NCBI RefSeq assembly: GCF_050920415.1
Contig: NZ_CP169309.1
Strand: one strand, 5' to 3'
DNA from: Escherichia coli
Lineage (GTDB): Bacteria > Pseudomonadota > Gammaproteobacteria > Enterobacterales > Enterobacteriaceae
Length of the DNA stretch: 64,000 nt
Shown piece after piece: positions 231-45,766 of this stretch. Below the pieces are notes generated by a model. That model was not told where the DNA came from and made no database searches. It saw only the letters and a program-made list of their open reading frames with translations. The position numbers were made by a program, and so were the translations under genes. Numbering within the stretch: the stretch's first letter is position 1; each line of letters begins with the position of its first letter.

Positions 231-588
231 AAAGTCCTGTCCAGAAAGAAGTCGGCCTCGCAAAAATGAATAAACCCAGTTTCTCTTGCGCAACAGGTGG
301 AGAAGTCGAATACGCAGTATGTAAAAAATGAGGCAATAGATTCACTGGGGAGGTCGCGAGGAGGCGCAATTCTACAAAATTGCGCATTTCACTACCAGTC
401 TGGAGTCAGCCCGGATATGAACTGCAACTATTGCAAATAAAGAAATTAAGCTGGAAGGCATCACGCAATGAGGAAGATTGCCGGGTGCTGACGGTAAAAA
501 GCAATCGTAAAATCAGCGGCAAGCCGGAAAGGTTCCGGTGAGGCGCAATGTTGCGGGGGCTTAATCCCTGGTGGCATTGGTTGCTGGA

Positions 589-657
589 GAGAGAAAACCC
601 CCGCACGTTGCAGATATTCACCTGACAACATCACGGGGGCTAATCTTGAACCTAGAC
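589..657 (-). ncRNA. rdlD: Rdl antisense RNA, antitoxin of ldr (unit 1)
   Basis: Reverse complement gtctaggttcaagattagcccccgtgatgttgtcagg...gcgggggttttctctc matches my recollection of RdlD and ends in a GC stem plus U-tract. Ends are approximate. Confidence 0.45.
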
Positions 658-705
658 CACTCAAGAATAGCCGCGAAACGTTGTCATTACAACACAGGCG
701 GCTAT

Positions 706-813
706 ATGACGCTCGCAGAACTGGGCATGGCCTTCTGGCATGATTTAGCGGCTCCGGTCATTGCTGGCATTCTTGCCAGTCTGATCGTGAACTGGCTGAA
801 CAAGCGGAAGTAA
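706..813 (+). CDS. ldrD: Ldr-family type I toxin, 35 aa (unit 1)
   Basis: ATG at 706; MTLAELGMAFWHDLAAPVIAGILASLIVNWLNKRK. Small hydrophobic peptide with basic C-terminus, matching LdrD. Confidence 0.85.
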   Translation: MTLAELGMAFWHDLAAPVIAGILASLIVNWLNKRK

Positions 814-863
814 CGTGTCAGACGGGCGTCAGGCTGCCGTAATGGCAATTTGCGCCCGGACCA

Positions 864-895
864 GGCCGCAGGGATAAAACTCTGCGGCCTTTTTC
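864..895 (+). terminator. Rho-independent terminator of ldr unit 1
   Basis: Stem ggccgcag...ctgcggcc followed by tttttc. Confidence 0.6.
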
Positions 896-1071
896 GTAAG
901 AAAAATGCAACGGTTGCAAGCGGATAATATTCTGCGGAATGCGCAGCACAGAGTGAAGAAGTGATGGATTCTGGAACAGAAAAACAGTCGTAGAATCAGC
1001 GGCAAGCCGGAAGGGTTCCGGTGAGGCGCAATGTTGCGGGGGCTTTATCCCTGGTGGCATTGGTTGCTGGA

Positions 1072-1140
1072 GAGAGAAAACCCCCGCACGTTGCAGGTAT
1101 GCACCTGACAACATCACGGGGGCCATTCTTGCATCCAAAC
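1072..1140 (-). ncRNA. rdlD: Rdl antisense RNA (unit 2)
   Basis: Same position in the repeat as unit 1. The 5' part differs (ccattcttgcatccaaac variant). Confidence 0.4.
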
Positions 1141-1188
1141 AATACAAGAATAGCCGCGAAACGTTGTCATTACAACAGAGGCGGCTAT

Positions 1189-1296
1189 ATGACGCTCGCA
1201 GAACTGGGCATGGCCTTCTGGCATGATTTAGCGGCTCCGGTCATTGCTGGCATTCTTGCCAGTCTGATCGTGAACTGGCTGAACAAGCGGAAGTAA
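1189..1296 (+). CDS. ldrD: Ldr-family type I toxin, 35 aa (unit 2)
   Basis: ATG at 1189; peptide identical to unit 1. Confidence 0.85.
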   Translation: MTLAELGMAFWHDLAAPVIAGILASLIVNWLNKRK

Positions 1297-1346
1297 CGTG
1301 TCAGACGGGCGTCAGGCTGCCGTAATGGCAATTTGCGCCCGGACCA

Positions 1347-1378
1347 GGCCGCAGGGATAAAACTCTGCGGCCTTTTTC
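1347..1378 (+). terminator. Rho-independent terminator of ldr unit 2
   Basis: Same hairpin plus T-run as unit 1. Confidence 0.6.
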
Positions 1379-1555
1379 GTAAGAAAAATGCAACGGTTGC
1401 AAGCGGATAATATTCTGCGGAATGCGCAGCACAGAGTGAAGAAGTGATGGATTTCGACGAACAAAAATGGCCGTAGAATCAGCGGCAAGCCGGAAGGGTT
1501 CCGGTGAGGCGCAATGTTGCGGGGGGCTTTATCCCTGGTGGCATTGGTTGCTGGA

Positions 1556-1624
1556 GAGAGAAAACCCCCGCACGTTGCAGGTATGCACCTGACAACACCA
1601 CGGGGGCCATTCTTGCATCTAGAC
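1556..1624 (-). ncRNA. rdlD: Rdl antisense RNA (unit 3)
   Basis: Same position in the repeat; approximate ends. Confidence 0.4.
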
Positions 1625-1672
1625 CATTCAAGAATAGCCGCGAAACGTTGTCATTACAACAGAGGCGGCTAT

Positions 1673-1780
1673 ATGACGCTCGCAGAGCTGGGCATGGCCT
1701 TCTGGCATGATTTAGCGGCTCCGGTCATTGCTGGCATTCTTGCCAGCATGATCGTGAACTGGCTGAACAAGCGGAAGTAA
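1673..1780 (+). CDS. ldrD: Ldr-family type I toxin, 35 aa (unit 3)
   Basis: ATG at 1673; MTLAELGMAFWHDLAAPVIAGILASMIVNWLNKRK (L to M variant). Confidence 0.85.
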   Translation: MTLAELGMAFWHDLAAPVIAGILASMIVNWLNKRK

Positions 1781-1830
1781 CGTGTCAGACGGGCGTCAGG
1801 CTGCCGTAATGGCAATTTGCGCCCGGATCA

Positions 1831-1862
1831 GGCCGCAGGGATAAAACTCTGCGGCCTTTTTC
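1831..1862 (+). terminator. Rho-independent terminator of ldr unit 3
   Basis: Same hairpin plus T-run. Confidence 0.6.
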
Positions 1863-2038
1863 GTAAGAAAAATGCAACGGTTGCAAGCGGATAATATTCT
1901 GCGGAATGCGCAGCACAGAGTGAAGAAGTGACGGATTCCGGAACAGAAAAACAGTCGTAGAATTAGCGGCAAGCCGGAAGGGTTCCGGTGAGGCGCAATG
2001 TTGCGGGGGCTTTATCCCTGGTGGCATTGGTTGCTGGA

Positions 2039-2107
2039 GAGAGAAAACCCCCGCACGTTGCAGGTATGCACCTGACAACATCACGGGGGCTAATCTTGAA
2101 CCCAAAC
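2039..2107 (-). ncRNA. rdlD: Rdl antisense RNA (unit 4)
   Basis: Same position in the repeat; approximate ends. Confidence 0.4.
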
Positions 2108-2155
2108 AACTCAAGAATAGCCGCGAAACGTTGTCATTACAACAGAGGCGGCTAT

Positions 2156-2263
2156 ATGACGCTCGCAGAACTGGGCATGGCCTTCTGGCATGATTTAGCG
2201 GCTCCGGTCATTGCTGGCATTCTTGCCAGTCTGATCGTGAACTCGCTGAATAAGTGGAAGTAA
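2156..2263 (+). CDS. ldrD: Ldr-family type I toxin, 35 aa (unit 4, C-terminal variant)
   Basis: ATG at 2156; MTLAELGMAFWHDLAAPVIAGILASLIVNSLNKWK. C-terminus differs from the other copies (W to S, R to W). Confidence 0.75.
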   Translation: MTLAELGMAFWHDLAAPVIAGILASLIVNSLNKWK

Positions 2264-2313
2264 CGTGTCATGCGGGCGTCAGGCTGCCGTAATGGCAATT
2301 TGCGCCCGGATCA

Positions 2314-2345
2314 GGCCGCAGGGGTGAAACTCTGCGGCCTTTTTC
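2314..2345 (+). terminator. Terminator of ldr unit 4, placed convergent with the bcsG 3' end
   Basis: Hairpin ggccgcaggggtgaaactctgcggcc plus T-run, immediately before the bcsG stop at 2350. Confidence 0.55.
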
Positions 2346-2349
2346 GTTC

Positions 2350-4029
2350 TTATTGCGGGTAAGGCACCCAGTCGCCGCCGTTCAGGCGAACGTACGGTTT
2401 ATCCTGGTATTGAATAACTACTGCATTTGAGTTCTCGGAGACCGGTGCTGTTTGTGGCAACCCACTGGTGAGTTTTTTCCAGTCAACATTGTCTTCGGTG
2501 AAAATCTTACCATCAAGAACGCGAACCACCAGATCGGAGATAGCCAGGAAGCTGCTCGGTTGGTTGATGACAATCGGTGCCCCCTGATGTGGTGCCTTCA
2601 TGCCGAAGAATTTCACCCCAACGGGGACGTCTGTGATAGACGGGCTAGGGATATCACGTAGGCCAGATACCTGCATTCTGTCGCCCTTCAGCGCGCCACC
2701 GTGTTCCGGCACCACTACCACCATCACTTTACGACCCGATTTCTCCAGTTCAGTAAAGAAGGCGTCCAGCTCATCAAAGAATTTCTGCGCTCGCGCTTTG
2801 TAATCCGCTGTTTTGCTGACGCCCGGATAATGGTTGCCGTCATGCAGTGGAAGCGTGTTGTAGAACGTGGCACTACGGCTGTTTTTATCTTTTTCGGTAA
2901 CGTCCAGCCAGCGGTTAAGCACGGCGGTATCGTCATAAACCGGCGAACCATCAAAGCCCAACAAAATAACCGGCAGATTTGTTTGATCCATCAATTCGGT
3001 CTGCATGCCGCCATTTTCGCGAACTTCTTTCAAAAAACCGCCGAACTGGCCGTTATGTCCCATCATCAGGTGCTGGGTAAAGCCCAGTTTCGACAGGTTA
3101 TCAAACAGATAGCAGTCGTTATTTGCCGGTTGATACAGATTAGTGTGCGAAGTCTGCCCGCAGCTGGCGCGCAGTAAACGGATCGCCGCCGGGCCACTGT
3201 AGGAGGTGGCGGAGTTAAAGTTCTTGAACTCAATATCGAAATGCGACCACAGCGGATGCGACATCAACCCGGCGGCTTCAATATCCGACCAGGAAAGCGA
3301 ACAGATATTAATCACCAGTAGTTCAAATGGCTGAGCATCAGCGGGCAGCGAAGACGGGAAGGTCGATTTACGTTTCGCCTCCGCGTTATAGAAATTATTC
3401 AGCCAGGCGTTAAGGTTCGCCGTTGTTGGCGGTGCAGTTTGTGCGGGCATATCACCCACTACCGGTGCGCCACCCGTCGCCGCAACGGTTGCCGCTGCGT
3501 TACCACCCGTCGTTGTTACAGTGGTCGTCGGTTGACCGGCAGGCCACAAGGAGAAACTTGGTCCCGCCAGGGTAAGTACGTTCAGCCATAGCAGAATGGC
3601 AACCACAAAAACGGTAATGCGAATCCATTGTGACAGGAATAACCAGGCCACTAATAAAACAAAAATGGCCCCAATCATCTGCCAGTTAATAAAGCGTGTG
3701 ACAAGGTCGATTAAATAATCGGTACTGAACCCCGCCACCTGCGAACCCTGGCTCATTATGCTTTCCGGGCCAGGCAACCAGGTGTCATGCCAGAACAAAG
3801 CAAAGCCGATCGGCAGGGCAATCCAGTGGCGTAAGCGATGCAGGCTGTAGCGCGGAATGGGCATCAGCAGAAACGCGGCAAACACCAGATTGAGGAGCGG
3901 ATGGAAGTTAAGATATCCCGCCCACAACAGGCCGAACTTAACCAGAAAATAGAAGTTCCAGCCGGAAAGGCCGCGCCAGTATTGCCAGAGGGAAGAAGGC
4001 ATGGCGGTATTTTGCGTAAATTGAGTCAT
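2350..4029 (-). CDS. bcsG: Cellulose phosphoethanolamine transferase BcsG (YhjU)
   Basis: 559-aa ORF with N-terminal membrane segments and a C-terminal sulfatase-like domain; length and position match BcsG. Confidence 0.9.
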
Positions 4030-29760: not shown

Positions 29761-30279
29761 TTCTTTGACCGATTGTTGTTCACATCGAAACAGTAACGCG
29801 CATATCGCATTGTTTATTGTTTTTTCTAACATCTAATGCCGGGTTTCACAATGTTGTCATGACGAATGTGGCGATTTCTCAGTAGGAAAAGGGGAGAATA
29901 GCTTTATGAGAAAGGTGAATCCCCTTAAACAGAGCGTATTTTTCAGCGATTCCCTTTAAAGTGAATAGAGGACGTATTGGCTATTTGTGCTTATTTTTGT
30001 CTCATTGCCGTTTGTTATTTTGGCTTGTGGTCGCGGAATTTCATTTTTAATTGCATGCGTACTAGCCATCAATATAAGGAAATCCTCAAAATTGTTTTAA
30101 ATAGTGCCCTCGACATGTAATTTCAGGCGTTTAGCTGTAACTATTTATATCGGTAACTATTTTCTACGCGTCATCTCTGTAGAATGGCCACCGCCAAATG
30201 GCGAATTCTTATTTTTTCTCGCGGGTAATACCCTTCCACTACTTAAGTCTTTTTAACGTATTCAGGTGGAGATTCAGTT

Positions 30280-30882
30280 ATGCAAATAGTCATGTTTGAC
30301 AGGCAGTCAATATTTATTCATGGAATGAAAATCAGTTTACAGCATCGTATTCCAGGAGTGAGTATTCAGGGGGCCAGTCAGGCAGACGAGTTATGGCAAA
30401 AGCTGGAAAGTTACCCTGAAGCCTTAGTGATGCTCGATGGCGATCAGGATGGTGAGTTTTGCTACTGGTTGCTGCAAAAAACCGTGGTGCAATTTCCTGA
30501 GGTTAAGGTGTTAATTACGGCGACGGATTGCAACAAACGGTGGTTACAGGAAGTTATTCATTTTAATGTGCTGGCCATTGTGCCTCGTGATTCAACCGTC
30601 GAGACATTTGCGTTGGCGGTCAATAGTGCGGCGATGGGGATGATGTTTCTGCCTGGAGACTGGCGAACGACGCCGGAAAAGGACATTAAAGATCTCAAAT
30701 CGTTAAGCGCCCGCCAGCGGGAGATTTTAACCATGTTAGCGGCGGGCGAATCAAATAAAGAGATCGGCAGGGCGCTGAATATCAGTACCGGAACGGTGAA
30801 AGCGCATCTGGAATCACTGTATCGCCGTCTGGAAGTCAAAAATCGCACCCAGGCGGCAATGATGTTAAATATCTCCTCCTGA
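30280..30882 (+). CDS. yhjB: LuxR/FixJ-type regulator YhjB
   Basis: 200 aa; C-terminal LuxR HTH (LSARQREILTMLAAGESNKEIGRALNISTGTVKAHL). Confidence 0.88.
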   Translation: MQIVMFDRQSIFIHGMKISLQHRIPGVSIQGASQADELWQKLESYPEALVMLDGDQDGEFCYWLLQKTVVQFPEVKVLITATDCNKRWLQEVIHFNVLAIVPRDSTVETFALAVNSAAMGMMFLPGDWRTTPEKDIKDLKSLSARQREILTMLAAGESNKEIGRALNISTGTVKAHLESLYRRLEVKNRTQAAMMLNISS

Positions 30883-30932
30883 AGAGGATAATTTTACAGC
30901 CAGCAGGAAGTTAGCGGCTGGCTGTAAAAATA

Positions 30933-32612
<1,680 letters not shown>

Positions 32613-32986
32613 TTATCGGGCTTTTCTTTAAGGGTAGTCATTCGCTCCGCCTGGTGGGCGACAAAGCGTGCGGTGGATCACGTTTATTAACTTGTCAAAA
32701 AATATAACGCACTAATATCAATAGAATTTATAAAAATACGGATTCCTTGTTGTTTTTCATTTTCAGAACATTCAATCCTGCTCTCGCCGCAATCATGATA
32801 TGCCATTCCTGCTCTGTATAATAGGCGCAGGCTATCTTATTGATAGTTTATATTCATGTAATTGATTGATTCCTATCAAAAAGCGTATTTCCCTGTTTTT
32901 TATGATGGCTTTGTCTCGCAGAGACGTTTGCAGCATTCTGGAAAATTTTCTGGGTCACAATAACTCACCACCGTGAGGGAAGAATA

Positions 32987-34384
32987 ATGAAAATGGTCTC
33001 ACGTATTACCGCGATCGGCCTGGCTGGCGTCGCGATTTGCTATTTAGGGTTATCTGGTTATGTGTGGTACCACGATAATAAACGCAGTAAACAGGCCGAT
33101 GTTCAGGCATCTGCTGTCAGTGAAAATAATCAGGTTTTAGGTTTTCTTCGCGAAAAAGGATGCGACTATTGTCATACGCCTTCGGCAGAATTACCCGCCT
33201 ATTATTATATTCCTGGCGCGAAACAGTTGATGGATTACGACATTAAGCTTGGATATAAATCTTTTAACCTCGAGGCCGTGCGTGCGGCTCTGTTGGCAGA
33301 TAAACCCGTTTCGCAAAGCGATCTGAATAAGATTGAATGGGTGATGCAGTATGAAACTATGCCGCCAACGCGTTACACCGCGCTACACTGGGCGGGTAAG
33401 GTGAGTGATGAAGAGCGGGCGGAAATACTTGCCTGGATTGCAAAACAGCGCGCGGAATATTACGCCAGTAATGATACTGCTCCGGAGCATCGCAATGAAC
33501 CGGTGCAGCCTATTCCGCAAAAACTACCTACCGATGCGCAAAAAGTGGCGTTGGGTTTTGCGCTGTATCATGATCCCCGTTTATCGGCTGATAGCACCAT
33601 TTCATGTGCACATTGCCATGCGTTAAATGCGGGTGGCGTTGATGGCAGAAAAACGTCGATTGGTGTTGGTGGTGCCGTTGGACCGATTAACGCACCGACG
33701 GTATTTAACTCAGTATTTAACGTTGAGCAGTTCTGGGATGGTCGTGCGGCAACATTGCAGGATCAGGCGGGTGGACCGCCGTTGAACCCGATTGAAATGG
33801 CGTCGAAATCCTGGGACGAAATTATTGCTAAGCTGGAAAAAGATCCGCAGCTTAAAGCGCAGTTCCTCGAAGTCTATCCGCAAGGTTTCAGTGGCGAAAA
33901 TATTACTGATGCTATTGCTGAATTTGAGAAAACATTAATTACGCCGGATTCCCCATTTGATAAATGGTTGCGTGGAGATGAGAATGCGCTGACGGTGCAA
34001 CAGAAAAAAGGCTATCAATTATTTAAAGATAATAAATGTGCAACTTGTCATGGTGGTATTATTCTCGGCGGACGTTCTTTCGAGCCGTTGGGGCTGAAAA
34101 AAGACTTTAACTTTGGGGAAATTACGGCGGCGGATATTGGTCGTATGAATGTTACTAAAGAAGAGCGTGATAAATTGCGTCAGAAAGTACCCGGTTTACG
34201 TAACGTTGCTTTAACGGCACCGTACTTCCATCGCGGTGACGTGCCGACGCTGGACGGGGCGGTAAAACTGATGCTGCGCTATCAGGTAGGCAAAGAGCTG
34301 CCGCAGGAGGATGTGGATGATATCGTAGCTTTCCTGCACAGTCTGAACGGGGTATACACGCCGTATATGCGGGATAAACAATAA
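32987..34384 (+). CDS. ccp: Cytochrome c peroxidase Ccp (YhjA)
   Basis: 465 aa; several CxxCH haem-binding motifs (CDYCH, CAHCH, CATCH). Confidence 0.9.
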   Translation: MKMVSRITAIGLAGVAICYLGLSGYVWYHDNKRSKQADVQASAVSENNQVLGFLREKGCDYCHTPSAELPAYYYIPGAKQLMDYDIKLGYKSFNLEAVRAALLADKPVSQSDLNKIEWVMQYETMPPTRYTALHWAGKVSDEERAEILAWIAKQRAEYYASNDTAPEHRNEPVQPIPQKLPTDAQKVALGFALYHDPRLSADSTISCAHCHALNAGGVDGRKTSIGVGGAVGPINAPTVFNSVFNVEQFWDGRAATLQDQAGGPPLNPIEMASKSWDEIIAKLEKDPQLKAQFLEVYPQGFSGENITDAIAEFEKTLITPDSPFDKWLRGDENALTVQQKKGYQLFKDNKCATCHGGIILGGRSFEPLGLKKDFNFGEITAADIGRMNVTKEERDKLRQKVPGLRNVALTAPYFHRGDVPTLDGAVKLMLRYQVGKELPQEDVDDIVAFLHSLNGVYTPYMRDKQ

Positions 34385-34495
34385 TTAATTTGATCGCCCG
34401 AACAGGAATGTTTGGGCGATTTTTATTACGACAATAAAGTCTGTTTTTAATATTATCATGTTAAATGTTTATATTATAAAAAGTCGTTTTTCTGC

Positions 34496-34515
34496 TTAGG
34501 ATTTTGTTATTTAAA
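34496..34515 (+). promoter_or_regulatory. GAD box (GadE/RcsB binding site) upstream of gadA
   Basis: ttaggattttgttatttaaa, about 80 bp upstream of the gadA ATG; matches the 20-bp gad box consensus as I recall it. Confidence 0.7.
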
Positions 34516-34594
34516 TTAAGCCTGTAATGCCTTGCTTCCATTGCGGATAAATCCTACTTTTTTATTGCCTTCAAATAAATTTAAGGAGTTCGAA

Positions 34595-35995
34595 ATGGAC
34601 CAGAAGCTGTTAACGGATTTCCGCTCAGAACTACTCGATTCACGTTTTGGCGCAAAGGCCATTTCTACTATCGCGGAGTCAAAACGATTTCCGCTGCACG
34701 AAATGCGCGATGATGTCGCATTCCAGATTATCAATGACGAATTATATCTTGATGGCAACGCTCGTCAGAACCTGGCCACTTTCTGCCAGACCTGGGACGA
34801 CGAAAACGTCCATAAATTGATGGATTTGTCGATCAACAAAAACTGGATCGACAAAGAAGAATATCCGCAATCTGCAGCTATCGACCTGCGTTGCGTAAAT
34901 ATGGTTGCTGACTTGTGGCATGCGCCTGCGCCGAAAAATGGTCAGGCCGTTGGCACCAACACCATTGGCTCTTCCGAGGCCTGTATGCTCGGCGGGATGG
35001 CGATGAAATGGCGTTGGCGCAAGCGTATGGAAGCCGCAGGCAAGCCAACGGATAAACCTAATCTGGTGTGCGGCCCGGTACAAATCTGCTGGCATAAATT
35101 CGCCCGTTACTGGGATGTGGAGCTGCGTGAAATCCCTATGCGTCCCGGTCAGTTGTTTATGGATCCGAAACGCATGATTGAAGCCTGCGACGAAAACACC
35201 ATCGGCGTGGTGCCGACTTTCGGTGTGACCTACACCGGTAACTATGAATTCCCGCAACCGCTGCACGATGCACTGGATAAATTCCAGGCCGACACCGGTA
35301 TCGACATCGACATGCACATCGACGCCGCCAGCGGTGGCTTCCTGGCACCGTTCGTCGCCCCGGATATCGTCTGGGACTTCCGCCTGCCTCGTGTGAAATC
35401 GATCAGTGCTTCAGGCCATAAATTCGGTCTGGCTCCGCTGGGCTGCGGCTGGGTTATCTGGCGTGATGAAGAAGCGCTGCCGCAGGAACTGGTGTTCAAC
35501 GTTGACTACCTCGGTGGTCAGATTGGGACTTTCGCCATCAACTTCTCCCGTCCGGCGGGCCAGGTGATTGCACAATACTATGAGTTTCTGCGCCTCGGTC
35601 GTGAAGGCTATACCAAAGTACAGAACGCTTCCTACCAGGTTGCCGCTTATCTGGCGGATGAAATCGCCAAACTGGGGCCGTATGAGTTCATCTGTACCGG
35701 TCGCCCGGACGAAGGCATCCCGGCGGTTTGCTTCAAACTGAAAGATGGTGAAGACCCGGGATACACCCTCTACGACCTCTCTGAACGTCTGCGCCTGCGC
35801 GGCTGGCAGGTTCCGGCCTTCACCCTCGGCGGTGAAGCGACCGATATCGTGGTGATGCGCATTATGTGCCGTCGCGGCTTCGAAATGGACTTTGCTGAAC
35901 TGTTACTGGAAGACTACAAAGCCTCCCTGAAATACCTCAGCGATCACCCGAAACTGCAGGGTATAGCCCAGCAGAACAGCTTTAAACATACCTAA
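34595..35995 (+). CDS. gadA: Glutamate decarboxylase alpha GadA
   Basis: 466 aa from ATG 34595 ([24 protein letters not shown]...); AAGGAG SD at 34583-34588; adjacent to gadX, hence gadA rather than gadB. Confidence 0.93.
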
Positions 35996-36363
35996 TAACA
36001 TAATGTTGTAAAAACCGAATGCCCCGACCTTCAAAAACAGGTGGGGCATTCGGTTACTTATTAATGCAATAATATATTGGCTGTTTATTCATCGTGTTGA
36101 TAAGATATATGTTATATGAATGTTATTAAGGGTGGCGAGACCGTTTAATATCACAATAAGGGATTATTTGCTTACTAATAATTCCTCTGCGTTTTAAACG
36201 TCTTTTTTTGTATTATAAATCCAGTTATCCAGCCCGACTATCATCACACATCATCATCCTGTTTTCCCGCTTCGTTTAAATTTATTTATCAATCAATTTG
36301 ACTTAAGAGGGCGGCGTGCTACATTAATAAACAGTAATATGTTTATGTAATATTAAGCCGACT

Positions 36364-37188
36364 ATGCAATCACTACATGGTAATTGTCTAATTGCGTACG
36401 CAAGACATAAATATATTCTCACCATGGTTAATGGTGAATATCGCTATTTTAATGGCGGTGAACTGGTTTTTGCGGATGCAAGTCAAATTCAAGTGGATAA
36501 GTGTGTCGAGAATTTTGTATTAGTTTCAAGGGACACGCTTTCATTATTTCTCCCGATGCTCAAGGAGGAGGCATTAAATCTTCATGCACATAAAAAAGTT
36601 CCTTCGTTACTCGTTCATCACTGTACCAGAGATATTCCTGTTTTTCAGGAGGTTGCGCAACTATCGCAGAATAAGAATCTGCGCTATGCAGAAATGCTCC
36701 GTAAAAGAGCATTAATCTTTGCGTTGTTATCTGTTTTCCTGGAGGACGAGCAGTTTATACCGCTGCTTCTGAACGTTTTGCAACCGAACATGCGAACACG
36801 AGTTTGTACGGTCATCAATAATAATATCGCCCATGAGTGGACATTAGCCCAAATCGCCAGCGAGCTGTTGATGAGTTCAAGCCTGTTAAAGAAAAAATTG
36901 CGCGAAGAAGGTACGTCATATTCACAGTTGCTTACTGAGTGTAGAATGCAACGTGCTTTGCAACTTATTGTTATACATGGTTTTTCAATTAAGCGAGTTG
37001 CAGTGTCCTGTGGTTATCACAGCGTGTCGTATTTCATTTACGTTTTTCGAAATTATTATGGGATGACGCCCACAGAGTATCAGGAGCGATCAGCACAAGA
37101 ATTGCCGAACCGTGACTCGGTGGCAAGTATTGTTGCGCAAGGGAATTTTTACGGTACTAACTATTCTGCGGAAGAAATAAGATTATAG
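36364..37188 (+). CDS. gadX: AraC-family acid-resistance regulator GadX
   Basis: 274 aa with C-terminal AraC HTH. Confidence 0.92.
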   Translation: MQSLHGNCLIAYARHKYILTMVNGEYRYFNGGELVFADASQIQVDKCVENFVLVSRDTLSLFLPMLKEEALNLHAHKKVPSLLVHHCTRDIPVFQEVAQLSQNKNLRYAEMLRKRALIFALLSVFLEDEQFIPLLLNVLQPNMRTRVCTVINNNIAHEWTLAQIASELLMSSSLLKKKLREEGTSYSQLLTECRMQRALQLIVIHGFSIKRVAVSCGYHSVSYFIYVFRNYYGMTPTEYQERSAQELPNRDSVASIVAQGNFYGTNYSAEEIRL

Positions 37189-37203
37189 TTTTTACCCAGA
37201 CAT

Positions 37204-37309
37204 AAAAAAAACCCGGCATAGGGGACCGGGAAGAGGATAGTCTGCCGTCTCCAGACTAATAAACCGTTATAACACTCCCTGTTGGCACGGGAAACTTTGT
37301 GCTCTCAGT
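37204..37309 (-). ncRNA. gadY: GadY small RNA, antisense to the gadX 3' end
   Basis: Reverse complement begins actgagagcacaaagtttcccgtgcc and ends in a poly-U terminator (A-run 37204-37211 on plus). Ends are approximate. Confidence 0.6.
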
Positions 37310-37555
37310 AAGTTAAATATAACTTTTACTGGAGATAAGATCAGCCATTTTTTTATAAACATAAGCTATGCGCTGTGTGAAAATATATTCTTCTTGCATT
37401 TTCTTATTATCAATTAACTGTTATGTCAAACTACTTTTTGGATAACTTTTGGTCCTACCAAATATGGCAGTTTATGCACGAAGAAGCGGTCTGGCATCAT
37501 TTCATTAGTATACTGAAATTGAAATAATCGCAGTAATGAAATATAAGGGATAGTC

Positions 37556-38284
37556 ATGACTCATGTCTGCTCGGTGATCCTCGTTCGTCGTTCATTGGAT
37601 ATTCATCATGAACAGCAAAAAATATCGTTGCACAACGAAAGTATTCTACTGCTGGATAAAAATTTGGCAGACGATTTTGCGTTTTGTTCACCGGATACAC
37701 GACGACTGGATATCGATGAGCTGACAGTTTGCCATTACTTACAAAATATTCGTCAGTTACCGCGCAATTTAGGGTTACATAGCAAAGACCGTTTGTTAAT
37801 TAACCAGTCCCCGCCCATGCCTCTGGTGACGGCGATTTTTGATAGTTTCAATGAATCCGGAGTAAATTCGCCGATACTGAGCAATATGCTCTACCTTTCC
37901 TGTTTATCTATGTTTTCTCATAAGAAAGAACTAATCCCCTTACTTTTCAATAGTATCAGCACTGTTTCAGGAAAAGTTGAACGCCTTATTAGCTTTGATA
38001 TCGCTAAACGTTGGTATCTACGCGATATCGCGGAAAGAATGTATACCAGCGAGAGTCTCATCAAAAAAAAGTTGCAGGACGAAAATACCTGTTTCAGTAA
38101 AATATTACTCGCTTCCAGGATGTCGATGGCCAGACGATTACTCGAGTTACGTCAAATTCCTCTACATACTATTGCGGAAAAATGTGGGTATAGCAGTACG
38201 TCGTACTTTATAAACACATTTCGACAATATTATGGTGTAACGCCACATCAGTTTGCGCAACATTCGCCAGGTACCTTTTCCTGA
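37556..38284 (+). CDS. gadW: AraC-family acid-resistance regulator GadW
   Basis: 242 aa with AraC HTH. Confidence 0.92.
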   Translation: MTHVCSVILVRRSLDIHHEQQKISLHNESILLLDKNLADDFAFCSPDTRRLDIDELTVCHYLQNIRQLPRNLGLHSKDRLLINQSPPMPLVTAIFDSFNESGVNSPILSNMLYLSCLSMFSHKKELIPLLFNSISTVSGKVERLISFDIAKRWYLRDIAERMYTSESLIKKKLQDENTCFSKILLASRMSMARRLLELRQIPLHTIAEKCGYSSTSYFINTFRQYYGVTPHQFAQHSPGTFS

Positions 38285-38646
38285 CATATTTCGCATTTGA
38301 ATATTGGTCAGGATCTCACACGTGCTTCATGTGAAACTCTTCCCTGATGATTTCTGCCGGGCTACCGGCTAGTTCTCTTTCGCAGTATGCCAGGCGGTAT
38401 AGGTATTTTCAGGAGGAAAAGACTCGGCATGTTTGGGATTATTAAGCTGACAATTCATACGATTACGGGAATGTGGGTCAGTATTGTGCTGTTCAAATTG
38501 ATGACGAATGGCTGGAGTGGTTTTTACTTTCAGTGCTGTGTACTAAGCCTGGTATTCCTGACGGTTAGCTGGTTGTTGAGTGGTGAATGGTTAGCAGGAA
38601 AGAGTAAGGCTGAACCCTCACGTTCAACCTTACTCTCATTTACACG

Positions 38647-41600
38647 TTACGCTTTTTTAAAGCGGGCAAAGAGATGTTCCACTACAACGAAAAAGACTGG
38701 AACGAAGTAAATGGCCAGCACTGTTGCGGCAAACATCCCGCCCATCACGCCGGTACCTACCGCGTTTTGCGCGCCGGAACCGGCACCGTGGCTGATTACC
38801 AGCGGCAACACGCCGAGAATAAAGGCCAGAGAGGTCATCAGGATTGGGCGTAAACGCATCCGCGCCGCTTCGATGATTGCCTCTATCGGCGTTTTCCCTT
38901 CTTTCTGCATCATCTCAACGGCAAATTCGACGATCAGGATGGCGTTCTTGGCGGAAAGCCCGATGGTAGTCAGCAAACCAACCTGGAAGTAGACGTCATT
39001 ACTTAAGCCGCGCAGATCGGTGGCCAGTAATGCGCCAACGACACCTAACGGTACAACCAACATCACCGAGAACGGAATTGACCAGCTCTCATAAAGTGCG
39101 GCAAGGGCGAGGAACACCACGACCAGTGAAATGGCATACAGCGCGGGAGCCTGGTTTGAGGATAACGCTTCCTGATACGACAGTCCGGTCCACGAGTAGC
39201 CGACGCCTGCCGGAAGTTTAGCGACCAGGTCTGCCATAAATTTCATAGCGTCACCGGTACTTTTCCCGGCCGCCGCTTCACCTAAAATCTCCATTGACGG
39301 GATGCCGTTGTAGCGTTCCAGTCGCGGTGAACCATAGGTCCATTCGGTAGACGAATAGGCCGAAAGCGGTGCCATCGTGCCAGAGGCGTTGCGTACATAC
39401 CACTGGTTGATGTTATCCGGCAACATACGGAACGGCGTGCCTGCCTGGACATACACTTTTTTCACCCGCCCCTGGTTGAGGAAGTCGTTCACGTAGCTGC
39501 TGCCGAAGGCGGTGGAAATTGTCTGGTTGATATCAGACAGCGCCACACCCATTGCCTCGGCTTTCGCGGCGTTGACGTTCACTTTGAACATCGGCGTATC
39601 TTCCAGTCCGTTCGGGCGTACCCCGGTGACCTGATTCGGTGATTGCGCTGCCAGTGATAATAGCTCGTTTCGCGCCTGGGTCAGTTTTTCGTGCCCCAGG
39701 TTACCGTTGTCCAGCAGTTCCATATCAAAACCTGACGCGGTACCCAGTTCAGCCACCGCGGGTAAGTTGAACGGGAAGACGACGGCTTTATTGATACTGC
39801 TTAACGCAATCATTGCCCGCTGAATGATCGCGGTAACCGAGTTTTCCTCACCGACACGTTCAGACCACGGTTTGAGGCTGATAAACGCCAGACCGTTGTT
39901 TTGCCCCTGGCCACTGAAGCCAAAGCCGCCAACGGTAAACACCGACTGAACATTATCTTTCTCTTTTGTCAGATAATAATCAGTCACCTGTTGCAGCACT
40001 TTCTTGGTGTTAACCATGGTTGCACCGGAAGGTAACTGCGCGGTGGTCATAAATACCCCCTGATCCTCTTCTGGTAAGAAAGAGGTCGGCGTACGCAGGA
40101 ACAGCACCGCCATCCCGGCGCAAATCAGCAGGTAGACCACCATGTAGCGACCGGTACAACGCAACAGCGAGCGGGTGCTGTCGGTATAGTGATGAGTCGA
40201 TTTTTCAAACAGCGTGTTGAAGCGTGCGAACAGGGCGTTAGGTTTGTGACCGCCTTCCGGCGCGGCTTTCAGAATGGTGGCGCACAGGGCAGGGGTCAGG
40301 CTCATTGCCACAAATACTGAAAGCAGCATCGAGGAGATCAGCGTGATGGAGAACTGTCGGTAGATCTCCCCGGTTGCACCGCTCATAAAGGCCATCGGCA
40401 TAAACACTGCGGAAAGAACAACGGCAATCCCGACCAGCGCACGTTGGATCTGCCCCATCGATTTATGCGTCGCTTCCTTCGGCGGTAGTTTATCTTCCGC
40501 AATGACACGCTCGACGTTCTCCACCACCACGATGGCGTCATCCACCAGTAACCCTATCGCCAGCACCATCCCGAACATAGTTAACGTGTTGATGGTGAAA
40601 CCGACCGCCGACAAGATCGCAAACGTCCCGAGAATAACCACCGGTACGGCAATCGTCGGGATGATTGTGGCGCGGAAATTCTGCAAAAACAGATACATGA
40701 CCAGGAAGACGAGGATGATAGCCTCAACCAGCGTTTTGAAAACTTCCTGAATAGAAATTTTGATAAACGGTGTGGTGTCGTAAGGATAAACCGTCTTCAG
40801 GCTTGCGGGGAAATAAGCCGATAAACGGTTCAGCTCCTCTTTCACCGCTCGCGAGGTATCCAGGGCGTTTGCTCCGGTAGCCAGTTTGATGGCGATCCCG
40901 GCAGCAGGTTTGCCGTTATAGCGCGCCACGGTGGAATAATCTTCCGCCCCAAGTTCGACGCGGGCGACATCACGCAGCAGTACTTGCGAACCATCTTGCT
41001 GAACTTTCAACAGGATTTTGCCAAATTCTTCCGGCGTTTGCAGACGCGTCTGCACAATGATCGAGGCGTTCAGTTGCTGGTCTGCCGCCTGTGGCATGCC
41101 ACCCAGTTGACCACCAGAAATCTGGTTGTTTTGCACCTTAATCTGGGAAATAACATCGGAAGGTACCAGGTTGTATTTATTGAGTTTTTGCGGGTCCAGC
41201 CAGATACGCATGGCATACTCGGAACCAAAGAGTTGTACGCTACCAACGCCCGCGGTACGGCTTAGCGGGTCTTTGATATTAGACGCTACATAGTCCGCGA
41301 TATCGTACTGGTTGAGACTGCCGTTATCAGAAATAAACGCCGCTACCATCAGGATATTACTGCTCGACTTATCGACGCTAATACCCTGCTGCTGCACCGC
41401 TTCAGGTAATGAAGGCATAGCGAGTTGCAGTTTATTTTGCACCTGAACCTGCGCGATATCAGGCGATGTCCCCGTCTCGAAGGTCAGAGTGATGGAGGCA
41501 TTACCCGCCGCATCGCTGGTTGAAGACATGTACATCAGGCCATCAAGCCCATTCATATTTTGCTCAATCACCTGAGTGACCGAGTCTTCTACCGTTTGCG

Positions 41601-41760
41601 CATCGGCACCCGGATAGGTTGCGCTGACGGTAATGGTTGGTGGCGCAATCTGCGGATATTGCGCAACCGGTAAGTTCATGATCGCCAGACCACCTGCAAG
41701 CATCATAATAATGGCAAGTACCCAGGCAAAAACCGGGCGATCAATAAAATAGTTAGCCAT
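38647..41760 (-). CDS. mdtF: RND multidrug efflux pump MdtF
   Basis: 1037 aa, AcrB-like. Confidence 0.93.
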
Positions 41761-41784
41761 GAAAGTCCCCTTAAGCCTGCAACG

Positions 41785-42942
41785 TTATTGTTTCGATTCG
41801 GTGCTGGCGTTTTCCTGGCTGGAGGAAATTGCACGTGCTTTGATACCCGGATGAATACGTTGCAAACCGGAAACGATCACCCGATCGCCAGCCTGCAAGC
41901 CAGAGGTGACAACCCACTGGTCACCGATGGCTTTGCTGGCTTCGATTTCGCGTAGCTGCACGACATCGTCTTTATCCAGAATGAGTGCCGTTGCTTTACC
42001 CTGGGCGTTGTGGGTGACGCCTTCCTGCGGCACCAGTAATACATTCTGGCGGCTACCTTCATCCACTAATGCCGTGACATACATACCTGGCAGCAAATCA
42101 CCATTGGGATTGGGGAAAATTGCCCGTAAGGTCACGGACCCCGTGGTTTCATCCACCGTCGGGTCGGAGAATTTCAGCGTGCCGGTCTGGCTGTAACGTT
42201 TACCATTTTCCAGATTGAGCTGTACTGGCGTACTGCCCTGAACCTGTTTGATTTGTCCACTGGCGACCTCTTCTTTCATGCGCAAAAAATCCTGCACCGA
42301 CTGCGTGAGATCGACATAAATCGGGTCCAGACGTTGCACGGTAACCAGTGAATCGGCTTGATTAGCGGTAACGAGTGCGCCGACGGTCACCGATGATTTT
42401 CCGCTGACGCCCGTAATCGGCGAGGTGACATTCGCGTATTGCAGGTTGATAGTCGCCTGTTCAACAGCCGCTTTGGCGACGGTGACATTGGCTTCTGCTT
42501 CATTCAGCTGGGTGCGTGCGGTGTCGTAATCCTGACGGCTAACGTAGTTGGTCTTCAGCAATGATGCCTGGCGGTTAAAGGTGATGCGGGCATTGCTGGC
42601 GGTTGAGAGTGCTTTCGCCAACGAGCCTTTGGCGGAGTTTAGATCGGCCTGTAAAGGCGCAGGATCAATCTGATACAGCGAATCGCCCTGGTTCACTTTA
42701 TCGCCTTCGATAAAGTTGCGTTTAATGATAATACCGCCCACCTGGGGGCGTATCTCGGCAACTTCATAAGGAACGGTTCTACCGGGCAATTCGCTCAACA
42801 CATTGACCGAACCGGGGGAGAGTGTGACGACACCGACCTCAGGCGTCATGGCGGCGGCGTTTTCCGTCGATTTGTCATCGCAGGCGGTGAGCATCGCGCC
42901 GCAGAATAACAACGGTATTAACAGTTTTCTTCTTCTGTTCAT
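41785..42942 (-). CDS. mdtE: RND efflux membrane fusion protein MdtE (lipoprotein)
   Basis: 385 aa; lipobox LTAC. Confidence 0.92.
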   Translation of the reverse strand: MNRRRKLLIPLLFCGAMLTACDDKSTENAAAMTPEVGVVTLSPGSVNVLSELPGRTVPYEVAEIRPQVGGIIIKRNFIEGDKVNQGDSLYQIDPAPLQADLNSAKGSLAKALSTASNARITFNRQASLLKTNYVSRQDYDTARTQLNEAEANVTVAKAAVEQATINLQYANVTSPITGVSGKSSVTVGALVTANQADSLVTVQRLDPIYVDLTQSVQDFLRMKEEVASGQIKQVQGSTPVQLNLENGKRYSQTGTLKFSDPTVDETTGSVTLRAIFPNPNGDLLPGMYVTALVDEGSRQNVLLVPQEGVTHNAQGKATALILDKDDVVQLREIEASKAIGDQWVVTSGLQAGDRVIVSGLQRIHPGIKARAISSSQENASTESKQ

Positions 42943-43280
42943 TTTAGTCCCTGAAAATTCTTGAGATATAACGGTTCTTTAAATTGCGCGCGAGGAGAGG
43001 TATGAGGGATTTACAGACCAGCGGCATAGTGGGGTTGTCAGCCAGTAAGATGGGATGCAAGCACAGTGATCGACATGGTGAGGTCAACGACAAAAAAAAT
43101 GTTGCCGTTCTGCCAACAGTTCCTGCCAGCATTCGGGCAACGAAGGGTTCTACTGGTGGATACACATACCAGGGGAATAAAGTCGTTTTCGCCTCTCCTT
43201 TAGTCATCACCGGGGATAATGAAATCAGCATCTGCATCCCTCTTCATGCCTGCCATCATTTTCAGTTAATTATGTCCTGA

Positions 43281-43808
43281 CTAAAAATAAGATGTGATAC
43301 CCAGGGTGACGATGTCGCTCATACGTCTTAGTTTCAGCTTGTACATAATGTTGAATTTCTGAATCTTTAATGTTTGTTGCGAAATATTGAGCGTTGACGT
43401 GATATTGCTTTCGTTTTTGTTTTTCAGAATTAGCTGCATAATTTTGAACTGATTATGTGAAAAACATAATTGTGAATTCTTATGAGGCAAGTGTTTACCA
43501 TAAGTAATCTCAAGAAGATTTTTGATACTTTCTTTGCGGCTGACAAAATAAATAGGCGCTTTAGCTTTTAGTTTACTGATGTGATAAGGTGCCAAAACAA
43601 TAATTCTCTCGGCGTCTAATTTCTCCAGAAATTTAATCGCTTCTTCATCAAGGATATGGTTGTGATAGGTATCAATGATAACCTTGAAGGGTTTATTACC
43701 TACTTTTTTGATCTCTGACAGGGAATTGATTTTTATCATTTCGTGATTATCTTTCAACTGCCAAAAGCCCTGTAAAAGAAAAGAATCTTTCGTCATGAGA
43801 AAAATCAT
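43281..43808 (-). CDS. gadE: LuxR-family acid-resistance activator GadE
   Basis: 175 aa, MIFLMTKDSFLLQGFWQLKDNHEM... Confidence 0.92.
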   Translation of the reverse strand: MIFLMTKDSFLLQGFWQLKDNHEMIKINSLSEIKKVGNKPFKVIIDTYHNHILDEEAIKFLEKLDAERIIVLAPYHISKLKAKAPIYFVSRKESIKNLLEITYGKHLPHKNSQLCFSHNQFKIMQLILKNKNESNITSTLNISQQTLKIQKFNIMYKLKLRRMSDIVTLGITSYF

Positions 43809-44606
43809 AACTTACTCCTTAGCCGTTATCGTTTCGAACATGTCATCCTTTTCATTATTTACATCCCTGTCCGAATCGTTGTTCAATATAGTAAACGCCT
43901 ATAAGAACCTTGCCCTTCGTGAACTAATACGTCTATTAACACTAATCAATACTTCAGATTTATCCATCACGCACTCCATATATTGATCCTAAGTAAAATT
44001 CCTGGTTGTTATCAGATTGTAAGCTGCAAACAAAAAATTAACGTTTGCGGATTACTGCCCAAGAATAAGTTATCAATAACCAGTTTGTGATCTCTGAAGA
44101 ATATTACTAAAGTTAAAATGTAATCCGATTTAAATATCGAGTCTCCTTGTTTCGACTTAAGCTGGCAATTGGATTGCCAGCTTTCTTTTAACGCATTGAA
44201 ATTACCTGAGTAAATAACTCATTCATGTCTTCAGGTTTTTATATAGCGTCTGGAGACACGGATATTTATGCAATGTAATCAACGCCAGTTGCAAAAAAAT
44301 GAACCCGGATTACTTATTTAACCGCCCATAGCATCAACGTTTACGGAACTCTTTGTTCACTTTCCCACAGCACTTTTAAAACATTAAACCTGACTACGGA
44401 AAATATCAGCCATGATAATGTTTGAAATGGCTAATTTGCCATGCAATGAAAAAAATCAGATAAAATTCAGTAGGTTGAAATACTCATCAGCAGGTAATTA
44501 TTTCAATGATAGCGCGCAATTGATCTAAAATGCTGTGTAGCGGAGAGAGTATTAATTGGATCATAGTCACATCAAGTGACTATGATCCAGGTGGCAATAG
44601 GGATAA
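43809..44606. promoter_or_regulatory. Extended AT-rich gadE upstream regulatory region
   Basis: Roughly 800 bp of AT-rich non-coding DNA upstream of gadE; known in E. coli as a multi-promoter sensory region. Confidence 0.6.
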
Positions 44607-45179
44607 TTATTGCTTTTTAACAAACAAACTGGCGAAGCTGAACAGGCTAGCGGCGCTAAATATCAGTTCAATTCCCACTAGTGTGGAAACCAGCGTTACA
44701 GAAACCATCGGCGTTGCACCAAGGAATATCCAGGCAATGACGATATCCAGCACACCAATAACGAGCTGTAGCCAACTGCCTTTCATTGAACGCTGACGAT
44801 ACCAACTCATCAGACGAATAACTCCTGCCACACAGAACAAACCGGCAATAAATGCCGCAATGGCAAAAATGCCCAGCTCCGGTGCGCGGATGAAGAAATA
44901 GCCGATCAATAAATAGGCGACTGCGACGAGGAAACCGGATAATACCGGCCAGAAATTATGACTGCGGTTGCTGAATAGCCCGACAATAAGCGCAATGCCC
45001 GAGCAGATTAATAATGCACCCACTACTGTGCTTAAAATGTCGCCAGAGACGAACGGAAAACTGATACACAGCAACCCGACGATAAACAGCAGCACGGCAA
45101 TAAACTGGATTGCTCTGCGATGTTTTTTAAGCATCTCCAGATCAAACTTCAAAATTGTTGCCTTATCTATATATAACAT
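44607..45179 (-). CDS. hdeD: Acid-resistance membrane protein HdeD
   Basis: 190 aa, multi-TM. Confidence 0.9.
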   Translation of the reverse strand: MLYIDKATILKFDLEMLKKHRRAIQFIAVLLFIVGLLCISFPFVSGDILSTVVGALLICSGIALIVGLFSNRSHNFWPVLSGFLVAVAYLLIGYFFIRAPELGIFAIAAFIAGLFCVAGVIRLMSWYRQRSMKGSWLQLVIGVLDIVIAWIFLGATPMVSVTLVSTLVGIELIFSAASLFSFASLFVKKQ

Positions 45180-45433
45180 AGAACCACCCTATAAAATTAA
45201 GAAGAAAATCCCCTGCTATCAATCTATGCCAAAAACGCGTCTAAGAATGCAGTCGATTTAATAAAAATTTCCTAATTACAGTATCTGATGCATCTGTAAC
45301 TTATTGTATTGAAATAAAAATATCTGATTTTGATATTTTCCATCAACATGACATATACAGAAAACCAGGTTATAACCTCAGTGTCGAAATTGATTCGTGA
45401 CGGCTCTTTCACTTTATAGTTGAGGATATTACG

Positions 45434-45766
45434 ATGAAAAAAGTATTAGGCGTTATTCTTGGTGGTCTGCTTCTTCTGCCAGTTGTGAGCAATGCAGCGG
45501 ATGCGCAAAAAGCAGCTGATAACAAAAAACCGGTCAACACCTGGACCTGTGAAGATTTTCTGGCTGTGGACGAATCCTTCCAGCCAACTGCAGTTGGTTT
45601 TGCTGAAGCACTGAACAATAAAGATAAACCAGAAGATGCGGTTTTAGATGTTCAGGGTATTGCAACCGTAACCCCAGCGATCGTTCAGGCTTGTACTCAG
45701 GATAAACAAGCCAACTTTAAAGATAAAGTTAAAAGCGAATGGGACAAAGTTAAGAAAGATATGTAA
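45434..45766 (+). CDS. hdeA: Periplasmic acid-stress chaperone HdeA
   Basis: 110 aa with signal peptide. Confidence 0.93.
   Translation: MKKVLGVILGGLLLLPVVSNAADAQKAADNKKPVNTWTCEDFLAVDESFQPTAVGFAEALNNKDKPEDAVLDVQGIATVTPAIVQACTQDKQANFKDKVKSEWDKVKKDM

Follow-up and report, generated by a model that had tools for sequence, protein, structure and literature searches.

The LdrD/RdlD (LDR-D) locus of Escherichia coli K-12 was reportedly described by Kawano et al. in 2002. Growth arrest or killing by the overexpressed peptide, countered by Rdl, has been documented for K-12 LdrD and LdrA only (PMC8309996, PMC8406316, PMC12643268), and a 2021 review states that no mutagenesis of LdrD had been published (PMC8309996). 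Ldr is documented to differ between strains in sequence and also in copy number, the latter in PMC2887945. A regulatory logic like that of hok/sok has been proposed for ldr/rdl in the literature, as has a leader ORF (PMC4147584, PMC8594479). In published descriptions of the Ldr/Fst superfamily, the tryptophan at position 30 of the Ldr peptide is its signature Trp (PMC2887945, PMC7472228); Fst of plasmid pAD1 carries Val at this position and is still toxic, so that the signature is not essential (PMC7472228).

A four-unit LDR-D array between yhjV and bcsG

The window, by which the whole stretch of 64,000 nucleotides is meant, has in its first 2.35 kb a tandem array that is bounded by the start of yhjV (− strand) on one side and the end of bcsG (− strand) on the other. 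Tandem Repeats Finder returned a period of 483, 3.8 copies and 95% matches, and the unit alignment gave 95% mean column identity across the array units. The region is syntenic with annotated yhjV-ldr-bcsG in many E. coli genomes, and a 20-kb stretch of the window is 100% identical to the genome of MFDS1022581, in which five units are present at this site. The array and its flank are made up as follows.

497–2347, + strand: four-unit tandem array of the LDR-D type between yhjV and bcsG, about 483 bp per unit
About 430–912, 913–1395, 1396–1879 and 1880–2362: array units 1, 2, 3 and 4
706–813, + strand: Ldr ORF copy 1 (L26, W30, R34; WP_000170738.1 type), with its rdlD at 592–657 (− strand)
1189–1296, + strand: Ldr ORF copy 2 (peptide as in copy 1), with its rdlD at 1075–1140 (− strand)
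1673–1780, + strand: Ldr ORF copy 3 (M26; WP_001295224.1 type), with its rdlD at 1559–1624 (− strand)
2350–4029, − strand: bcsG (cellulose phosphoethanolamine transferase), the unique right flank, from the ORF list and the MFDS1022581 annotation of the identical region

Each unit contains one 35-codon Ldr ORF on the + strand, and all four peptides gave full-length matches to the Pfam family PF13940 (Ldr_toxin). Full-length matches to Rfam rdlD were likewise found opposite the 5' UTR in all four units, with scores of 82–90 bits against a gathering score of 50, and the terminator scan placed an intrinsic terminator at the close of every unit. Because the repeat array, the Ldr_toxin and rdlD matches and the terminators occur together, the locus is identified as LDR-D, the ldrD/rdlD type I toxin-antitoxin locus of E. 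coli, here in an amplified form with four units. An NCBIfam scan of the four Ldr peptides matched no family. Unit 4, which adjoins bcsG and is the subject of what follows, contains these parts.

1958–1963, + strand: TAGAAT, putative −10 box of the ldr mRNA promoter; the same in units 2–4, TAAAAT in unit 1
1998–2075, + strand: 25-codon upstream ORF, MLRGLYPWWHWLLERENPRTLQVCT, in the 5' UTR, with rdlD overlapping it; a candidate for a leader ORF like ldrX
2042–2107, − strand: rdlD antisense antitoxin RNA, opposite the ldr 5' UTR (Rfam RF01813, 90.4 bits, positions 1–66, E 4.6e-19)
2145–2148, + strand: Shine-Dalgarno sequence GAGG, 7 nt before the ATG; identical in units 2–4
2156–2263, + strand: Ldr toxin ORF copy 4, 35 amino acids, MTLAELGMAFWHDLAAPVIAGILASLIVNSLNKWK; RefSeq WP_000170737.1 as annotated in MFDS1022581 and N96
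2313–2345, + strand: intrinsic terminator of the unit-4 ldr mRNA, from the terminator scan, 5 nt from the bcsG stop codon

Unit 4 thus carries both the LDR repeat and the cis-antisense Rdl of an ldr/rdl module, and its rdlD has the highest Rfam score among the four units, with a terminator-like stem at 2064–2050 on the − strand. The upstream ORF is found in the ORF list for units 1 and 2 as well. A simple promoter scan gave no full match to the sigma-70 consensus, and the promoter assignment is therefore a putative one. The Shine-Dalgarno sequence of unit 1 is CAGG, with C at column 267 of the unit alignment.

Nucleotide and peptide changes in the fourth copy

Copies 1 and 2 encode the same peptide, MTLAELGMAFWHDLAAPVIAGILASLIVNWLNKRK, which ends in ...ASLIVNWLNKRK, and the C-terminus is ...ASMIVNWLNKRK in copy 3 and ...ASLIVNSLNKWK in copy 4. 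The translations bear out the C-terminal variant that an earlier, sequence-only reading of this DNA had reported for copy 4, and positions 2156–2263 are exactly those of the copy-4 ORF. In the unit alignment, copy 4 shows G>C at 2244, which changes codon 30 from TGG to TCG (W30S), C>T at 2251, which is silent (codon 32, AAC>AAT), and C>T at 2255, which changes codon 34 from CGG to TGG (R34W). The loss of the Trp that closes the membrane helix in favour of Ser and the exchange of Arg for Trp in the basic tail, both pointed out in that reading, are thereby traced to single codon changes.

Copy 3 differs at codon 26 (CTG>ATG, L to M) and also, silently, at codons 25 and 5. The sequence-only reading had described the codon 26 difference as a change from L to M; the difference itself is present, but its direction is not clear, because K-12 LdrD has M26 as well and M26 is no rarer than L26 (at least 1000 contigs, as against 831 for L26).

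Distribution and age of the allele

An exact peptide look-up identified the copy-4 peptide, with S30 and W34, as WP_000170737.1, which is found on 82 contigs. Among 5426 complete E. coli genomes, the exact 45-mer carrying both changes was present in 2, MFDS1022581 and N96, and in these two independent genomes the 541-base unit including its flank is identical to that of the window. Wherever the S30 and W34 combination was seen, the window included, it stood in the bcsG-proximal, terminal unit of the array.

Tandem repeats of 483 bp are a classic source of assembly errors, and it could accordingly be asked whether the variant is an artefact of sequencing or of repeat collapse, the former of which had been named by the sequence-only reading as a way for its observation to fail. 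Such an artefact deserves practically no credence. The same sequence occurs in the two complete genomes and in many draft assemblies, the variant unit is anchored to the unique bcsG flank, and the peptide has a RefSeq accession of its own, so that a sequencing error is excluded. The comparison with Ldr alleles of other strains that had been proposed as a check likewise came out in favour of the variant, with both the S30 and the S30 plus W34 forms catalogued elsewhere. The copy-4 allele is a real, inherited and already known natural allele.

The two amino acid changes differ greatly in frequency. W30S alone, WP_000170736.1, is found on at least 1000 contigs, and the exact S30 45-mer occurs in at least 316 of the 5426 complete E. 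coli genomes (about 6%). S30 stands in the terminal unit in IAI39, 042, ECCNB12-2, MS6198 and ST648, the last of which has no other ldrD copy. W34 on a W30 background was found on only 3 contigs. Because S30 alone is common and S30 with W34 is rare, R34W is placed later than W30S, and on this distribution it is a rare, recent addition to an older S30 allele. The sequence-only reading had taken both changes as one event; they are better described as two, of very different age and frequency.

Haplotype of the terminal unit

Unit 4 carries nine private substitutions relative to units 1–3. Five of the nine fall within 29 nt (2244–2272), where 0.56 would be expected (P about 0.005, corrected for the number of scanning windows). 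One further feature is needed here.

2271–2272, + strand: TG, where units 1–3 have GA; marker of the terminal-unit haplotype, common to K-12 ldrD and the terminal units of other strains

The terminator loop of unit 4 also departs from those of units 1–3, at 2324 and 2326. The silent 2251T, the TG at 2271–2272 and the G residues at 2324 and 2326 recur in terminal units that have kept W30, among them the single ldrD of K-12 and the terminal units of S88 and K_EC180. Because W30 terminal units in other strains have these positions in common, an old haplotype, which the interior units lack, is recognised in the 3' part of the last unit. The order of events would have been the terminal-unit haplotype, then W30S on that haplotype, then R34W within a small clade that includes the strain of the window.

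Gene conversion from ldrA, ldrB or ldrC was considered as the source of the cluster of changes and was rejected, since codon 30 is TGG in these genes and the codons around it are very different. Within the lineage of the window, the number of units is four to five and the interior units are mosaics. The terminal unit adjoins unique sequence and would largely stay out of the unequal exchange and conversion by which the interior units are shuffled. On this general model, which we infer to apply here, the position at the edge of the array likely explains why the changes are confined to the last unit.

Predicted structure of the mRNA

The mRNA of an ldr unit was predicted to fold back on itself, and all the variant sites of copy 4 lie within the 3' arm of the resulting structure.

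2130–2299, + strand: long mRNA hairpin, in which the 5' arm (2130–2213) pairs with the 3' arm (2230–2299)

From the end of the 5' UTR, the 5' arm runs through the Shine-Dalgarno sequence and the AUG into the ORF, of which it takes in the first half; the second half and the 3' UTR make up the 3' arm. One long hairpin that buries the Shine-Dalgarno sequence and the AUG was predicted, in minimum free energy folds and in pairing probabilities alike, for all four units and for K-12 ldrA, ldrB and ldrC. The predicted folds therefore show the long-range structure over the Shine-Dalgarno sequence and start codon that marks a hok/sok-like arrangement. Across 35 sequences from six genera (Escherichia, Citrobacter, Klebsiella, Kluyvera, Salmonella and Pseudocitrobacter), the hairpin pairing held in 88.3% of cells, as against 32–49% with slid partners, for a tested structure drawn from one of the aligned sequences. 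In the same 35 sequences, 26 pairs of the hairpin were changed on both sides, and none of 500 shuffles reached the observed values. This outcome agrees with the published hok/sok-like model of ldr/rdl regulation, leader ORF included (PMC4147584, PMC8594479). RNAalifold, applied to the alignment truncated to −60 to the terminator, favoured local hairpins over the long one; one of these local hairpins also sequesters the Shine-Dalgarno sequence.

The effects of the individual changes on the predicted fold are small and of opposite sign. With G>C at 2244, a G that was bulged gives way to a G-C pair (about −2.2 kcal/mol), the change at 2255, C>U in the mRNA, turns a G-C pair into a G-U pair (about +2.4 kcal/mol), and the silent change at 2251 is neutral. 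The predicted energies of the mRNA are −179.4 to −179.6 for the ancestral G/C state, −181.6 to −181.8 with S30 only and −179.2 with S30 and W34, so that the net energy of the double change is about zero and each single effect amounts to about 1% of the energy of the whole fold. On these predicted pairings and energies, disruption of the mRNA structure by the substitutions was rejected, and in the modelled folds both substitutions are compatible with the regulatory structure.

Integrity of the unit and conservation of the peptide

By homology to K-12 LDR-D, each unit would produce a stable mRNA that is translated into a 35-residue, single-helix toxin of the inner membrane. The fold-back hairpin, by burying the Shine-Dalgarno sequence and the AUG, would hold off translation of the toxin, and the cis-antisense RdlD would pair with the 5' UTR, probably blocking the leader ORF in the way that Sok does for mok/hok. 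Because the RNA architecture is undisturbed by either change, expression and repression of unit 4 are expected to be like those of its neighbours.

The suggestion in the sequence-only reading that the copy might be decaying found no support. The ORF, Shine-Dalgarno sequence, rdlD, terminator and mRNA hairpin are all intact, and the Shine-Dalgarno sequence, start and stop match those of units 2 and 3. No stop, frameshift or lost start was seen in the eleven S30-bearing terminal units examined. The sole unit of ST648, which is 97.5% identical to unit 4 from the −10 box to the terminator, has S30 in an open ORF. S30 is an old allele, retained with its ORF open in at least 316 complete genomes. 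A decayed Ldr does occur elsewhere, in Pseudocitrobacter vendiensis, where a stop stands at codon 31. Copy 4 itself shows no sign of decay.

The peptide was compared with its family in the same way. Copy 4 matches Pfam Ldr_toxin over its full length (residues 1–35 on profile positions 1–35) with 77.3 bits against a cut-off of 27, whereas copies 1–3 score 90.7 and 93.2 bits. W30S by itself takes 7.3 bits off the 90.7, leaving 83.4, and R34W takes off a further 6.1, down to 77.3 bits; both positions carry heavy weight in the Ldr_toxin profile. In place of the superfamily signature Trp, copy 4 has Ser at position 30, with a Trp at position 34 instead; the loss of W30 is mildly notable because it is this signature residue. 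W30 is nearly invariant across the sampled genera, the exceptions being Kluyvera (H30 or R30, with W31), Klebsiella michiganensis and K. spallanzanii, and R34 is almost invariant, replaced by G once and by Q once. The P/D/S/T-xxx-G helix motif is retained as P17-V-I-A-G21, which is invariant in the peptide alignment.

These figures bear on a reading in which copy 4 is an attenuated or dead toxin under relaxed selection, tolerated beside three canonical copies, whose intact look would be owed to no more than occasional conversion of its 5' part from adjacent units. The signature Trp is gone, the tail NKWK retains two basic residues rather than three, and reviews describe cationic residues at the C-terminus as indispensable to the toxicity of the related toxins AapA1 and Lpt (PMC8309996, PMC7472228). 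Both the 13-bit fall in Pfam score and the replacement of the near-invariant W30 and R34 would also be expected under relaxed constraint; in a set of 34 distinct E. coli units, polymorphism within the ORF peaks in its last ten codons, and the P. vendiensis stop shows that loss of an Ldr ORF does happen. Against this stand the uninterrupted ORFs of all 11 S30-bearing terminal units, among them the only ldrD copy of ST648, the best-scoring rdlD of the array in unit 4, the conserved mRNA hairpin that both substitutions leave in place, and the natural occurrence of Val or Arg at the Trp position in relatives that are toxic or conserved. Attenuation is on balance unlikely.

We consider it probable instead that copy 4 is an inherited allele within an intact, normally regulated unit at the edge of the array, and that its peptide is probably inserted into the membrane and probably toxic. 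The copy-4 peptide is expected to insert as a transmembrane helix and to be at least partially toxic. An LdrA whose cytoplasmic tail was exchanged for that of TisB is still toxic, and LdrA with a C-terminal FLAG tag is fully toxic (PMC12643268). As to the altered toxicity or topology that the sequence-only reading had also raised, the chimera and the Val of Fst-pAD1 speak indirectly against a complete loss of toxicity. Should the changes have a phenotypic effect, it would be expected to concern how the cytoplasmic tail behaves and not to amount to a loss of function.

Possible functions of the altered tail

Two further readings give the second change a function of its own. In the AlphaFold2 model of copy 4, obtained from a 26-sequence alignment, the peptide forms one helix from residue 3 to residue 34 (pLDDT 89), and because this helix runs unbroken through 34, residues 30 and 34 would lie one turn apart on the same face. 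R34W might then compensate for W30S by restoring an interfacial Trp at i+4 and by cancelling the extra stability that W30S gives to the hairpin. Replacement of W by S carries a cost of about 2 kcal/mol on the Wimley-White interfacial scale and that of R by W a gain of about 2.7 kcal/mol, and the predicted mRNA energy of the double mutant is back near the ancestral value. The contig counts (82 for W34 with S30, only 3 for W34 with W30) point the same way, but they probably reflect one clonal event and so carry no statistical weight. S30 without W34 is moreover far commoner and older (at least 1000 contigs and at least 316 genomes), which leaves no evident need for compensation; the energies differ by about 1% of the total, and for a peptide of 35 residues a predicted helix counts for little. 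Compensation is therefore regarded as improbable.

The changes might otherwise affect recognition of a partner and not toxicity, in which case the variant peptide would differ in its susceptibility to neutralisation. The candidate partner is YajC, whose overexpression neutralises LdrA and LdrD in a manner that needs the cytoplasmic tail of Ldr (PMC12643268). Neutralisation is lost when the cytoplasmic domain of LdrA is replaced, although the chimera is still toxic (PMC12643268), and the junction of helix and tail, together with the tail itself, is where copy 4 is altered. The domain mapping was carried out on LdrA rather than LdrD and by swaps of whole domains, however, and residues 30 and 34 as points of contact are conjecture; altered partner recognition is likewise doubtful, and no better placed than compensation. 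Taken together, the claim that R34W is a functional adjustment to the loss of the Trp, be it through a reset of Trp and hairpin or through YajC recognition, and that the terminal copy is functionally distinct, would be a long shot. The inherited allele in an intact and normally regulated edge unit remains the preferred reading.

Comparison with known systems

The closest described system is LDR-D of K-12, with which the locus has in common the yhjV-bcsG site, the peptide family, the antisense RNA opposite the 5' UTR, the 3' TG marker and the terminator stem. The terminator loop of K-12 is similar but not identical to that of the window (GGGGGGAAAC in K-12, GGGGTGAAAC here), and K-12 has one unit where the window has four. 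K-12 LdrD (PDB 5LBJ) differs from copy 4 at 4 of 35 residues, F3/L3, M26/L26, W30/S30 and R34/W34 (K-12 first). Nearer still to copy 4 is the S30 allele WP_000170736.1 (...IVNSLNKRK), which has the same W30S change, the silent AAT codon, the terminal position and the flanking haplotype but keeps R34; it represents the immediate ancestor state of copy 4.

With hok/sok, the ldr unit has in common a long 5' UTR, an antisense RNA placed away from the Shine-Dalgarno sequence of the toxin, a small upstream ORF and a structure that buries the Shine-Dalgarno sequence and AUG. The toxin families are unrelated, and ldr is not known to undergo 3' processing or translational coupling. Matches to Rfam sok (RF01794) on the + strand reached 27–30 bits, below its gathering score of 59, so that the locus is not a member of that family.

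Fst of pAD1 resembles copy 4 as a single-helix membrane toxin that has the PxxxG motif and lacks the signature Trp. Unlike copy 4, it is encoded on a Gram-positive plasmid; its tail is acidic and not basic, its antisense RNA lies at the 3' end, and similarity at the DNA level is not detectable. The Ldr peptides of Klebsiella michiganensis and K. spallanzanii (...IVSRMDNRK) are also without Trp at position 30 or 31, in loci that are otherwise conserved; here, in another genus, the replacement is Arg (TGG>CGG) and the tail is different.

The system is thus well known, both alleles have RefSeq accessions, and nothing at the locus lies outside known kinds. What it does offer is a natural allelic series at the two most conserved positions of the tail: W30/R34, S30/R34, S30/W34 and the very rare W30/W34. 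This four-allele series could inform the roles of the signature Trp and the basic tail in toxicity, membrane anchoring and neutralisation by YajC.

Array copy number and neighboring loci among strains

Comparison of strains at the yhjV–bcsG site (window 430-2362) showed that the number of ldr units differs inside one close lineage. Five units were found in MFDS1022581 (L001/L012) and four in the window, in N96 and in a draft assembly (loci L010 and L011), with the substitution P17S present in unit 1 of both N96 and the draft assembly. Elsewhere in the species, ST648 and K-12 each carry one unit, S88 three and 042 five.

Differences between strains were also seen in the surrounding DNA. The bcsG gene beside the array is broken by an IS4 insertion in IAI39 (L002, 3131-6079), a deletion fuses it to bcsC in K_EC180 (L009, 3631-7079), and it is intact in the window. 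The 20 kb at window 30000-50000 align unbroken to MFDS1022581 and WL297. Of the other close matches listed, with 98.8-99.0% identity, most align in two to three pieces, the splitting DNA being an additional ~9-11 kb annotated with the heme receptor gene chuA. The strain of the window thus lacks the chu segment at that position.

Ldr peptides in other genera

Peptides from Klebsiella michiganensis and K. spallanzanii (L028 and L031) end in IVSRMDNRK and are without Trp at or near position 30, the site of the superfamily signature Trp. Those from Kluyvera (L034 and L035) carry Trp at position 31 and not at position 30; their endings are IVSHWRSRK and IVSRWRNRK. Downstream of the ldr copy of Klebsiella grimontii (L026) lies sequence similar to the 3′ end of bcsG, a flank that hints at possible ldr–bcsG synteny in Klebsiella. 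The ORF of Pseudocitrobacter vendiensis (L037, 1501-1605) has a TGG-to-TAG change giving a premature stop at codon 31, and this is a genuinely decayed copy; the intact ending GWWRNRK is seen in L041, a metagenome-assembled genome related to it.

Upstream ORFs and structure of the ldr transcript

A G-run in the 5′ UTR (~1521-1527 in unit 3) comprises six G residues in unit 3 versus five elsewhere, the extra G occupying column 126 of the alignment of the four units (A1). With this additional G, the upstream ATG at 1514 shares the reading frame of ldr, so that an 88-codon ORF results. The ORFs that open upstream of ldr are as follows.

548-625, + strand, 25-codon upstream ORF of unit 1
1031-1108, + strand, 25-codon upstream ORF of unit 2
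1514-1780, + strand, 88-codon ORF of unit 3, in frame with ldr
1998-2075, + strand, 25-codon upstream ORF of unit 4

Unit 3 would carry either a changed leader or a fused product if the 25-codon ORF corresponds to ldrX, the leader that has been proposed.

A long hairpin in the ldr mRNA (window 2130-2299 in unit 4) is kept in six enterobacterial genera with compensatory changes (alignment A3), as in the pair CATTAC/GTAATG of E. coli versus CATGAC/GTCATG of Pseudocitrobacter. The SD, the AUG and the 5′ half of the ORF form one arm; the 3′ half of the ORF forms the other together with the 3′ UTR. The SD region likewise falls within an alternative local hairpin, ATAGCCGC / GCGGCTAT, which is invariant. 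The 5′ UTRs of all four units matched the Rfam family sok antitoxin (CssrC) at 27-30 bits, which is below the gathering score of 59 and does not constitute membership; these weak matches may reflect structural likeness or chance.

555-708, + strand, sub-threshold sok match, unit 1
1038-1191, + strand, sub-threshold sok match, unit 2
1522-1675, + strand, sub-threshold sok match, unit 3
2005-2158, + strand, sub-threshold sok match, unit 4

Polymorphism of the RdlD 5′ tail

Across 34 distinct E. coli ldrD-type units, variability peaks in the RdlD 5′ tail and the bases just upstream of the RdlD start, where 11 columns in 30 nt are commonly variable, and the remaining 5′ UTR is mostly invariant.

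638-667, most polymorphic stretch, unit 1
1121-1150, most polymorphic stretch, unit 2
1605-1634, most polymorphic stretch, unit 3
2088-2117, most polymorphic stretch, unit 4

Within this stretch, each unit of the window is distinct from the other three. By analogy with the Sib/Ibs systems, the variable tail may set the specificity of cognate pairing, each RdlD acting with its own mRNA.
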